64,000 nucleotides of DNA from a virus. Lineage: Duplodnaviria; Caudoviricetes. The translations under genes were made by a program, and so were the position numbers. The notes below the pieces were generated by a model. The model was not told the DNA's origin. It ran no database searches and was given only the letters and a program-made list of their open reading frames with translations. The stretch is taken from IMG/VR virus record IMGVR_UViG_3300028048_000001, positions 128,001 to 192,000 of that record. The stretch is one strand, 5' to 3'. Of the stretch, positions 54,899 through 58,571 are shown in pieces (the stretch's first letter is position 1; the number at the start of each line of letters is the position of its first letter).

Positions 54899-57800
54899 TT
54901 ATCTTTTCCAAGATTTAAGCATTTTTGAATGTTTATATCTCATATCTGCTTCTTGCTGTTTACCAAGATTAAATGATTTATGATAATCTCCAGTAAGATA
55001 TCCAGTAACTCTGCGAAGTCTTTGAATATCAGATGATCCACAAATTGGACAATTATCATTAATTTCATCAGTATATCCACAATTCATACAAGTATCAGAT
55101 GGAACATTTATTGCAAAATAAGGAACATCCTTATCCATAGCATAAATAATAATATCTTCTAATGCTTCAAGATTATTTTTAGCAGATGATTCTATTTCTA
55201 CATATGTAATACAACCTGCAGAAGAATATCCTGTTAATTGAGATTCTATATCAATTTTTTCAAAAGGATCAATTTCTTTCCATACAGGAACATGAATACT
55301 ATTCGTAAAATAAAGTTTATCTGATACATTAGGAATAGTTCCATATTTTTCTTTAAACTTAGTCATGGCAGTATATACTAATGTTTCTGCAGGTGTATAA
55401 TATACACCAAAATTAAGTTTATATTTCTGTTTAAATTCTGCACATCTATCTTTAAATAATTGTTCAATTCTTTTAGCTAATTCCATACCTTTTGGTTCAG
55501 TATGATCACATCCTATAAGAATTTGAAGAGTTTCTGCTAAACCAACTTGACCTAATGCTAAAGTTCCATGTTTAAGTGCAGATCTTGTATCTTTACCATC
55601 ATAACCAAGCATTACTTTATTACCATACATGAATTTAGCACATTCTGCTGGTTGAGCACAAATCCACTCAAATCTTTCAATCAATTCATCTTTAGCATCA
55701 TTAATATAATGATCAAGAAGATTCATAAATTCTTCAATAATATCAGAATTTTTCTTTAATGATTCTTCTTTTGCCATCATAGCGATAGTTGGCATAATTA
55801 CAGTAACAGGACAAATATTTCCTCTTCCATCTTTAGTTTGTGGATTAACATCTGGATCATGATTTATATCATAACCATTTACTGTCCTACACATTTTACC
55901 CTTTATCACTAAAGGAACTGACTATATCATCATTTAAATATGGGATTTAAATGTCCTCCGCTTCGAATATGTGCTTATCTCATATTCTACTCTCTTACAT
56001 TCATCAGAGATAGTCGATACACTTTCAATCAAGAATAGTAATTTTATTATCATTAATATTAATGATAACTCCCCATTTACTATATATACAATATTCAATT
56101 CTCTTGATTGCTTAGCACGGTCTCAACTTTAATAATATTTTATTATTGCATAAATAATAAAGTCCTAACCGTTAGCAGCTTATAATTAAGCTACACCCAT
56201 TAAGCATGGTTCAAAGGATTTTATATGGGCTGTAGTTCTAGACTTACCCATAGTTGCAAATTCTGTTTTTGGATCATTTGGATCATATCCAGCATTGCCA
56301 GACCAATCTACATTTGCATAATTAGGATATAATCGTTTAGCTGTACACTTAACAGCTAATTTAAATATATCATAATTAGGATCTCCTGGATGCTTATTAA
56401 TGCCATTTTTTAATTTATAAATACAACAAGGAAATATTGGAGTTCTATGAACTTCTCCAATTCCTTTAATAGATTCTTCTAAAAGAGCAATAGATATCAT
56501 TCTTCCTTCTGGAAGAGTACATGTACCATAGTTAATTGAGGAAAAAGGTCAAATGTTATCTTATAGACTTTTTATTCTATAATTCTTACAATTTCTTGTA
56601 AGGTCGGCGTACATATTCACCATGGTATTTTACTACTTTAGGTATGGGTACTCTTGGATGGATTATTATATTCTTCACCATCTACGCTCTACAATGTCAG
56701 TTTACCTTTTAAATTAAACTGATTATCTCGGTATTAACATAATATATTAAATTTAAATTAATATATCTTAGCCTTCACCGATTTTACCCAATTCATCTTA
56801 TATATTTCTATATAAGCGGCCACCAATTTAGCTGAGATAATTTTATTATCTTATAGACTTTTTATTCTATAATTCTGGAAATCGCTTTCATACTCTACAT
56901 ACCTTTATTAGTAGAGATACGTCTGTCAATTCAGACCAGTTTGGCATAAATTTTTACCCTCGTTTAACGTTAGGTTTGTCTGCGATCAACTCAGACTCAT
57001 ATAGTGCTATACACTATAGTATTCGACACTCGTGGGAGTATTATATTTATTCAACTCCTATGCTCTACAATACTAATTATCCTTACGTAATATAATTAGT
57101 TATCTCGGTATTGTCACAAATAATTTTATATTCTTCAAATTTTCTTCTTAAAAATAAATTTTGTGCAAAATTATATATATTATTTTGTGAGTTTTACCGA
57201 TTTTGCCGAATTAATCTAATATATTTCTATATTAGTGGGCCCTCATTTGACCCGATCTACTCTGCAGTGTGTTAAGATTATGGTACATGGCTTCTATAGA
57301 TTGATAAACTTCTCTTTTTGTCATATCCATAGCATAATTATATGCTTTAGAATATTTCTTATACCAATCATCTTCTATAGAAATTTCTTTAATATTTTTA
57401 TTAATAGGGTTTTTATATTTATCTATTAATTCTTCTTTATTTTCTACATATTTTAATCCATCTCTAAAATGTTTATTAAAGCTTTTTCTTACAAATGGAA
57501 CCATTGTCCAGTCGAGGTGCGTGGCACTAACTCCCATTACTCTTTATATTTCTATAAAGTCTGACTATATCTTCTTTATTCTATTGAATAAAGTCTCGCA
57601 CTTGGGTAATAGATATTTTATATCTACTATGTGGTCTTGATACCACTCCTACTCCCTTACATTCATCAGGGATAGTCGATACATTAAGGAAATAATACAA
57701 TATATTTATTTACTCTTTTTCTATAATTATTATTTCTAAAAGTTGAAGATTTCCTTAACACGGTATTACCATATCTATATTTATATAGACTTAGGCTCTC

Positions 57801-58571
57801 TTACCACTTTAATCTTTCGATTTGGTTGACCGTTAGCAATTTATTATAAAAATAAATCACACCCTATATCTATAGGTTCACGAGATTTTACTTCGGCAGA
57901 GTATATTATTTACCGAATTCCTCTAGACTTTGAATTTGAAATATAACTGCTACTAATTGAAAAGCAGTACTTACTGTCTGTGGAGGTCTAATATCATTTT
58001 TTGAATTTCCTTTTAATGCAAACCCTTTTTCAAATAACATATCAAAAGGAACACTCATGCAATTATGCATTCCTACTACATATCTGTCTAAATCATGAAT
58101 ATATACTATATTATTTCTATGATTATCAGCATGTCTTTTAGACATATATTCATCTAATGCTAATTCTTTCATTATAGCATTATCTGCTTCACCAATTCTT
58201 CCACCAAAACTTGCTTCATCTATATTAGCATTCTGATTTTGAACGTTAGACGCAGCAAGTTTTTCTTTAATAATTTTTCTAATATTTGACTTTTTTTCTC
58301 TTTCTTTAGTACGTTCATTTCTATAAGTAATATAAGCTCTTGCTACATCTTTTCTTACATCCATAAGAGCTTCTTCTACTTTGTCTTGAATTTGTTCTAC
58401 AGAAAGATTTTCATTTAAATCATAAATATTTTGTGCAATTTTTCCAGCTTCAATAAGAGCTTCTTCAGTGCATATACCATCTACAGCATTAAATGCTTTA
58501 ATAACAGCAGTTGATATTTTATTTTTATCAAATGATTGCATTGATCCATCTCGTTTTTCTACATAAAGCAT
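54899..58571 (-). CDS. nrdD: class III anaerobic ribonucleotide reductase, 5 exons (58571-57912, 57534-57250, 56837-56830, 56549-56246, 55891-54899), 749 aa after splicing
   Basis: ATP-cone, YIHDLD, HNC; splicing restores FGGVSATH, RSGSQLPFSSINYG and MGCRT; YTPAE, CxxC..CxxC, RRVTGYL; exons total 2250 nt. Confidence 0.92.
55892..56245 (-). mobile_element. group I intron nrdD-I4 (354 nt, no ORF)
   Basis: P1 augggU/Gcccau, P10 uguag/cuaca, R gacua, S gauauaguc, terminal G; splits MG|CRT. Confidence 0.9.
56550..56829 (-). mobile_element. group I intron nrdD-I3 (280 nt, no ORF)
   Basis: P1 gcU/Ggc, P10 acc/ggu, P7 ga-gcgua/uacgcc, terminal G. Confidence 0.85.
56838..57249 (-). mobile_element. 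group I intron nrdD-I2 (412 nt, no ORF, apparent terminal A)
   Basis: P1 gggU/Gccc, P10 ucuca/ugagg, P7 ga-gcaua/uaugcc. Confidence 0.8.
57535..57911 (-). mobile_element. group I intron nrdD-I1 (377 nt, no ORF)
   Basis: P1 uucggU/Gccgaa, P10 ggagu/acucu, R gacua, S aagauauaguc, terminal G. Confidence 0.9.

Follow-up and report, generated by a model that had tools for sequence, protein, structure and literature searches.

Group I introns, and phage genes that contain several of them, are represented by the nrdD (sunY) intron of phage T4 and by orf142 of phage Twort. To our knowledge, all described phage group I introns of the T4 nrdD, Twort and Jug type end in G. This terminal guanosine (omega-G) is regarded as part of the definition of group I introns and as a requirement for their catalysis, and pipelines that set intron boundaries assume its presence. 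A terminal G is the rule in reviews and in a recent intron database (PMC3984707, PMC11835236), and in the open-access literature we found no phage or bacterial group I intron that ends in a base other than G. A single natural exception is documented, a giant intron of coral mitochondria which is hard to work with: the ND5-717 intron of hexacoral mitochondria ends in A (omega-A), and its exons are perfectly ligated in vivo (PMC6545197, PMC8146996). In the view of its authors, the A may keep hydrolysis at the 3′ splice site and circularisation in check (PMC6545197, PMC8146996). Multi-intron or split nrdD genes are common in gut jumbo phages, including Jug (PMC12880540). Here we analysed positions 128001–192000 of IMGVR_UViG_3300028048_000001, a phage genome of 274 kb from IMG/VR that carries terminal repeats; this whole stretch of 64,000 nucleotides is referred to as the window. 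It carries the nrdD gene encoding anaerobic ribonucleotide reductase, which, like nrdD of Jug, contains several group I introns (PMC12880540), in this case four (I1 to I4). The most likely reading of the second of these, I2, is that of a natural group I intron with omega-A, to which we assign a probability of roughly 0.7.

I2 (56838–57249, like all gene features described here on the minus strand) is a group I intron of 412 nt without open reading frame (ORF), and its terminal base is A. It follows exon 2 (57250–57534), which ends with ...LQSRSG (UCG GGU) and occurs as an identical ORF on 16 public contigs, and it precedes a micro-exon of 8 nt (56830–56837, UCUCAGCU) encoding Ser, Gln and two bases of Leu. 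Directly behind the micro-exon lies I3 (56550–56829, 280 nt), which belongs to the intron family of I2 and ends with ...CAUUUG (omega-G). The minus strand between 56850 and 56830 reads AAG(56850)AUAAUAAAAUUA(56838)|UCUCAG(56832)CU|AAAUUGG; read from G56850 it consists of G, AUAAUAAAAUU and A(56838), followed by UCUCAG(56832)CU, and the tail of I2 is ...AAAAUUA. The base preceding the micro-exon is A56838, whereas I1, I3 and I4 all terminate with G, as a first-pass annotation made from the letters alone had stated for all four introns. Every copy of I2 that we found carries A at the omega position (56838), and I2 thus lacks the omega-G which serves as a criterion of group I introns.

A sequencing or assembly artefact at this position could originate from a repeat, as the 3′ ends of I2 and I3 share an identical block of 31 nt (AGAAUUAUAGAAUAAAAAGUCUAUAAGAUAA, 56846–56876 and 56556–56586). 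This block interrupts contigs built with k = 31 or de Bruijn graphs: the k-mer contigs of the independent DNA run X2 break at it (records 23–25), and one X2 contig consists of exactly this 31-mer at double depth. However, the same base was found in at least eight independent assemblies made by different assemblers in different studies. A look-up of the exon 2 ORF yielded the 16 public contigs, and all eight that reach the site have A, namely L028 from Logan and seven contigs from ENA and JGI assemblies made in different studies (L023–L027, L029 and L031); they show AAAATTA|TCTCAGCT or a variant which is likewise A-terminal. Contig 23 of X2 spans 56557–56875 with zero differing letters, and the order of I2 tail, micro-exon and I3 is unbroken in X2 and in several assemblies. 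The A is also present in variants lacking I3, and because these have no second copy of the block, the repeat cannot create it. A56838 is real, and an artefact is effectively refuted. Altogether, three variants of the I2 tail were detected, AAAAUUA, AAAAUUUA and AAAAUCUA (UUA, UUUA and CUA), all of them A-terminal and all followed by UCUCA. Exact-pattern scans with I2-specific 21–23-mers gave zero matches in IMG/VR and zero in JGI metagenome contigs, collections from which near-identical records seem to have been excluded. Despite the identical 31-nt block, the P8–P9 regions of I2 and I3 differ, which suggests recent recombination or gene conversion between these two introns located 8 nt apart.

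Further members of the family to which I2 and I3 belong are the introns of L002, L015 and L020 and the terL intron of phage JCL1032, and all members except I2 end in G. Two of them, L015 (a Logan contig of SRR17418317) and L020 (ENA ERZ28656381 scaffold_21), are inserted at the same site as I2, after GGU of SRSG, in more distant nrdD genes of other gut or rumen phages, and possess the same family core and AAGAUAA tail motif. The former ends with ...AAGAUAAUAACAAUAG|AAC CAA UUA (tail ...AACAAUAG|AACCAA) and the latter with ...AAGAUAACAUUUUG|AAU CAG CUU (tail ...CAUUUUG|AAUCAG); in both, omega-G is followed by a codon for Asn (AAC or AAU), whereas I2 is followed by UCU (Ser). The L020 intron furthermore contains a 331-aa ORF (L020:2913–3908) with a faint LAGLIDADG match, unlike the ORF-less I2. 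In the alignment A1, the A of I2 occupies the column of the terminal G of L015. The most parsimonious view is that the A arose as a derived change within the I2 lineage, and as the relatives of I2 are omega-G phage introns, this change is most simply regarded as independent.

The intron in ORF5 of the Lactobacillus delbrueckii phage JCL1032 (EU409559), the terminase large-subunit gene whose coding sequence is annotated in GenBank as a two-piece join, belongs to the same family. From P4′ through P6 to P7 it is 83% identical to I2 over 81 nt, its P7 is that of I2 (GAGCAUA/UAUGCC), and both introns have the P7.2 hairpin, a last hairpin with an AUAAAAA loop, the GAUAAC tail and a P10 of 5 bp in common. 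It differs from I2 by its terminal G (...CACAAAUG|AAAAC), its host gene and its compact size of 226 nt, whereas I2 contains extra P5, P8 and P9 elements and is A-terminal. The coral ND5-717 intron resembles I2 in that a terminal A replaces the conserved G, and its host gene stays functional. In contrast to I2, it is eukaryotic organellar, strictly vertical and very large with genes inside P8; it is back-spliced in some lineages and probably protein-dependent. I2 is a small phage intron from a mobile family, and its close relatives, including one in nrdD itself, end in G. A regular-expression scan of the 274-kb genome for this family detected I2 and I3 only; an additional match at genome position 98921 turned out to be ordinary coding sequence.

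The helices of I2 were assigned by eye through comparison, and their complementarity was verified by script. By this comparison, I2 has the core of a group I intron and is IA-like, with a P7.1/7.2 hairpin between P7 and P3′. Its minimum free energy (MFE) fold recovers P1, P2, P3, P4, P6, P7.2, P8 and P9.2 with z = -4.0 versus shuffled sequences. P3, P4, P6, P7, P7.2 and P8 are legible in six family members, in which the sequences vary while complementarity is kept, as in P3 with UCGGC/GUCGA, GGGUA/UACCC, GGGGC/GUCCU, CUCCG/CGGAG, GGGAGC/GUUCCC and UGCGGU/ACCGCA. A cmscan with the Rfam model RF00028 left the whole window without a match at gathering score, and 55500–58200 without one at E ≤ 10; since the G-ending introns I1, I3 and I4 were missed too, this reflects the reach of the model and not a property of I2.

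The internal guide sequence of I2 (57237–57245) is 5′-UGAGG-GCCC, of which GCCC (57240–57237) pairs with GGGU of the exon to form P1, and UGAGG (57245–57241) pairs with UCUCA of the 3′ exon to form P10. P1 (GGGU/GCCC) contains the wobble pair U(-1)·G10 and is found in the same register in L015 (GUGGU/GCCAC) and L020 (GGGU/GCCC). The micro-exon has a double role, as its first 5 nt belong to P10 of I2 and its last 3 nt to P1 of I3. The 5′ strand of P7 (57059–57065, GAGCAUA) contains the guanosine-binding G187 (57063) next to the bulged A186 and is identical in the omega-G introns of L002 and JCL1032; the 3′ strand (56943–56948, UAUGCC), the only downstream candidate, provides C306 (56944) as the partner of G187. 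P7 is composed of G185-(A186 bulge)-G187-C-A-U-A with U302-A-U-G-C306-C307, and each intron of the family has one candidate 3′ strand. The guanosine-binding G-C pair described as intact in the first-pass annotation is indeed present and invariant across the family, whose P7 variants GAGCAUA/UAUGCC, GAGCGUA/UACGCC, ACGCGUA/UACGCU and ACGCAUA/UAUGCU covary at two positions. Because P7 of I2 is identical to that of the G-ending introns of L002 and JCL1032, its guanosine pocket is not remodelled. A different assignment, with UGCC at 56946 as P3′ and UAUGAAAGCG at 56890 as the strand of a disrupted P7, was rejected, as the alignment with L015 identifies UAUGCC (56948–56943) as P7′ and the later elements as P9 hairpins.

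At its 3′ end, I2 would be positioned by a P9.0 of two base pairs, in which A309 and A310 of J7/9 (56940–56942, AAA) pair with U411 and U410. In L003 this helix is compensated: J7/9 has changed from AAA to AAG together with a change of the tail from UU to CU, giving a G-C pair. The last hairpin, P9.2 (56851–56872, UUAUAGA-AUAAAAAG-UCUAUAA), lies inside the 31-nt block shared with I3, and its stem covaries in L015, L020 and JCL1032. A further hairpin, GAUAAU-AAA-AUUAUC, is possible at 56835–56850 according to the MFE fold; it would enclose the 3′ splice site and would compete with P9.0 and P10. A shorter GAUA/UAUC hairpin is possible in L003 and L028 and impossible in the G-ending relatives.

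When 32 positions (56856–56825) were scanned as 3′ splice sites, only 56838 combined 5/5 pairs of P10, 2/2 pairs of P9.0 and the correct reading frame. The distance between the last hairpin and this A is 13–14 nt, as compared to 11–14 nt in the G-ending relatives, 1 nt for G56850 and 19–23 nt for downstream Gs. The protein points to the same site, because an alignment of 108 NrdD homologues showed SRSG-[N/S/G]QL-PF at the I2 site; both the P10 geometry and the protein conservation which had been put forward for A56838 thus held. Solved NrdD structures are consistent with this, as three residues are located between Gly and Pro-Phe in PDB 8p23 and two in T4 NrdD.

Alternatively, I2 might use a neighbouring G as omega-G, either alone or to produce isoforms, and mutation of omega-G in model introns leads to the use of cryptic 3′ sites. 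In the window both candidates are in frame, as noted before: G56850, 12 nt upstream, would yield NrdD with IIKL added (AUA AUA AAA UUA), and G56832, 6 nt downstream, NrdD without Ser-Gln (UCU CAG); the next downstream G in L003 (UCUCAACUG|) is likewise in frame. However, the frame is lost at G56850 in L003 and L028, whose 13-nt tails are one base longer, and this G belongs to AAGAUAA, a motif conserved across the family and unchanged in relatives whose splice site must lie further downstream. G56832, in third position of the Gln codon, has been lost in L003–L005 by a synonymous change of CAG to CAA. Neither P10 nor P9.0 forms at these positions (0/5 contiguous and 0/2 pairs at G56850; 2 bp and none at G56832). 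Moreover, xQL is kept by all 108 homologues, whereas products of downstream Gs would vary in length between strains (1 versus 0 residues). The codons of the micro-exon differ only synonymously across alleles (UCU/UCG, CAG/CAA, CUA/CUG), the pattern expected of a translated sequence. Use of a neighbouring G therefore appears quite improbable, and the idea of alternative 3′ splicing that generates NrdD isoforms was not upheld, as neither the frame of G56850 nor the presence of G56832 is conserved.

The insertion point of I2 can be read from an allele without this intron. L009–L014, in which the exon 2 protein is 76% identical, have AGU GGA UCG CAG CU, followed by I3 with the same 5′ end as in the window; therefore, the uninterrupted gene encodes Gly-Ser-Gln-Leu at this site, which fixes the insertion point as Gly|Ser-Gln-Leu. 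Two further alleles possess I2 and lack I3 and I4: in L003–L005 (exon 2 82% identical) I2 ends ...AAAAUCUA|UCU CAA CUG CCU UUC, and in L028, a near-identical strain, ...AAAAUUUA|UCU CAG CUG CCC. The borders of I2 are fixed at the nucleotide level and cannot slide, because the last base is U in the exon and A in the intron, and the first base is C in the intron and U in the exon that follows. The sole alternative that is neutral for the protein shifts both splice sites one base upstream (GGG| and ...AAAAUU|A) and makes U the omega base; its product GGA UCU also encodes Gly, the allele without I2 reads GGA UCG, and protein conservation is blind to the difference. This shift would place G instead of U at the 5′ splice site, with loss of the U·G wobble that aligns with GGU| of the same-site homologues L015 and L020, and would bring P10 and P9.0 out of register; in addition, omega-U is no less unusual than omega-A. 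We consider it very unlikely. Skipping of the micro-exon by joining the 5′ site of I2 to the 3′ site of I3 was rejected, as it gives GGU|ACC with a frameshift. L003 and L028 have an omega-A I2 without I3, so I3 is not needed to explain I2. Spliced junctions would read ...AGATCGGGT|TCTCAGCT|ACCTTTTTCC for omega-A and GGGT|CTACC, GGGT|ATAATAAAATTATCTCAG and GGGA|TCTCAG for the rivals.

The exons downstream of I2 are, judged by their substitutions, under purifying selection. Between the window and L028 we counted 21 synonymous and 1 non-synonymous changes in 367 codons (dN/dS 0.012), and between the window and L003 dN/dS was 0.13 over 165 codons. In the latter comparison I2 is 97% identical and the flanking exons 85–86%, while the final 15 exon bases before I2 are identical. 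Such a pattern is typical of a homing intron which entered diverged nrdD alleles together with a short co-converted exon tract. A variant of I2 in L030 (L030:1285–1424) contains an ORF in the P5 loop that starts with MKRIDNEIENDIIKMYLEGYSCREVSEEYN... and is helix-turn-helix-like, probably a homing endonuclease; this contig stops short of the 3′ splice site. L003:607–762 retains a truncated remnant of the same type of ORF, which has been lost from I2 of the window. A spreading intron in this position would be tolerated only if it is spliced in frame, and selection and intron spread suggest that the exons are ligated.

Several observations weigh against a functional omega-A intron. No I1, I2 or I3 joint is found in the metatranscriptome contigs X15 and X16, which show a joint for I4 only. 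X16 has zero cover of I2, and its exon 2 contig ceases to follow the window 7 nt ahead of the splice site. In model ribozymes, as shown by mutants of the Tetrahymena intron, the change of omega-G to A strongly impairs exon ligation, and in P7 of I2 no compensating change is visible. All copies of I2 found are about 97–99% identical, and the A may be evolutionarily young; nrdD may also be non-essential for the phage. Finally, the Rfam group I model misses all four introns, and the structure is a comparative reading. The X16 strain is probably one without I2 and thus uninformative on I2 splicing. Its contig 13 (247 nt), which may represent a spliced junction or one from an allele without I2, matches exon 2 down to 57257 and continues with 45 further letters (7 + 8 + 30), the overhang length expected of a k = 31 unitig starting at the exon 4/I3 branch point; as a strain without I2 gives the same length, this contig was counted neither way. 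A protein search with exon 2 gave zero near-identical spliced fragments, the best match being 82% identical.

One could thus assume that I2 has been crippled recently, that it is unable to complete splicing and that the A is a tolerated defect in an inactive or dispensable nrdD. The missing I2 junction in the RNA contigs agrees with this, as do the very similar I2 copies, which leave little time for decay, and the nrdD of another gut jumbo phage has one interval without reported splicing evidence (PMC12880540). Nevertheless, 21 synonymous changes as opposed to 1 non-synonymous change have accumulated downstream of I2 since the strains diverged. The A survives three independent tail changes, with P9.0 compensated and P10 kept, and I2 resides in nrdD alleles which are 85% identical, indicating that it spread after, or together with, the A. 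We therefore regard a crippled I2 as unlikely. For the natural phage omega-A ribozyme that had been proposed at first, the conserved A, the G in its homologues, P9.0 and P10 and the selection on the exons provide strong comparative support; the chief weakness of this reading is that no spliced I2 junction was found in the RNA contigs.

In the proposed mechanism, I2 would be a functional, recently mobile intron of the JCL1032-terL/I3 family in which the terminal guanosine was replaced by adenosine. The first step would be ordinary: exogenous G in the unchanged P7 pocket (G187-C306) attacks after U of GGGU, which forms the U·G wobble of P1. In the second step, the 3′ site would be set by the 2-bp P9.0 (U410 and U411 with A310 and A309) and the unusually complete 5-bp P10 (UCUCA/UGAGG) stacked directly on P1, which together place A412 (56838 in the window) at the usual position of omega-G. 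The 5′ exon would then attack the A412–U bond, giving GGU|UCU CAG CU and thereby SRSG-SQL-PF. From the sequence comparisons we infer that ligation occurs after A412 and that the unmodified G pocket tolerates A through tethering in cis by P9.0 and P10. Accurate exon ligation by a small mobile phage ribozyme with omega-A and an unaltered G pocket, its 3′ site being defined by P9.0 and a 5-bp P10, seems to us somewhat more probable than its opposite. A possible cost of omega-A would be a slower second step; a possible gain would be reduced hydrolysis at the 3′ splice site and less circularisation, an advantage that has also been suggested for the coral omega-A intron.

If this holds true, I2 would provide the first example of its kind from outside the mitochondria of hexacorals, and omega-A might order the removal of two introns flanking a common 8-nt exon. 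I2 has only 412 nt and near-identical G-ending relatives, among them I3, which is located 8 nt away in nrdD and shares 31 identical nucleotides of the 3′ domain. This pair allows a natural comparison of A and G with respect to second-step kinetics, 3′ splice-site hydrolysis and circularisation, and permits testing how far P9.0 and P10 can substitute for G recognition. Annotation rules which demand a terminal G will misplace or miss real intron borders in phages.

The phage genome has a G+C content of 27% and was detected in bovine and sheep gut (rumen-type) metagenomes of many studies. The nrdD gene model was built from stop-to-stop frames and the minus-strand sequence; the spliced frame is open and encodes 749 aa, no in-frame stop is present in nrdD of the window, and the activase gene follows it. 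Exon 1 (57912–58571) encodes the ATP-cone and N-terminal part and ends with ...EEFG. It is followed by I1 (57535–57911, 377 nt), which has a P1 of UUCGGU/GCCGAA with U·G at the splice site and ends with ...UAAUG (...GAGUAAUG), hence omega-G. Exon 4 (56246–56549) encodes (L)PFSSINYGT...ATMG, I4 (55892–56245, 354 nt) ends with ...AAAAUG (omega-G), and exon 5 (54899–55891) starts with CRTVNG..., encodes the glycyl-radical domain and includes the stop codon. In the alignment with the 108 full-length homologues, the junction regions read EEFG|GVSA, SRSG-SQL-PFSS (homologues SRSG-NQL-PF[TS]S) and ATMG|CRT, and the first of these, the exon 1/exon 2 junction, fits the homologues. The metatranscriptome contigs X15 and X16 contain the exact joint 55891|56246, just before MG|CRT, which confirms the borders of I4 or else comes from a strain without I4. 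The exon 4 contig of X16 (contig 8) stops exactly at 56549, and an unspliced contig (contig 10) starts at 56520, 30 nt earlier; this pattern, typical of a k = 31 branch at the 3′ splice site of I3, is a weak hint at spliced and unspliced forms existing together.

Among the other members of the family, the I3 homologue of L009 (L009:2244–3080) carries a 278-aa ORF in P5, and I3 of the window is an ORF-less derivative with otherwise near-identical ends. In L002 (L002:4830–5613), another IMG/VR jumbo phage, a related intron splits Walker A (TGYG|KT) of a helicase-like gene, with borders deduced solely from the protein; its 5′ splice site (UACGGU|AAAC) is separated from the guide GCCG by about 500 nt which contain a complete ORF, an unusual ORF location. 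The nrdD motif HNLNTLQSRSGNQLPF (57250–57300 and 56500–56549 in the window) is a hot spot of intron insertion, with at least six distinct positions within about 45 nt: exon 2-like fragments of other phages end after HNLN, NTL, TLQ, SRSG (the I2 site), SRSGN (34 cases) and NQL (the I3 site, many cases). Two relatives, L020 and L003, contain an in-frame TAG within otherwise conserved nrdD exons. In L020 (exon at L020:2501–2779) it is found at the position of a Gln in the homologues, and the look-up gives 'with_TAG=Q'; in L003 it is codon 166 downstream of I2 (CTT GAT TTT TAG ATT). Stop-codon recoding in these relatives is likely.

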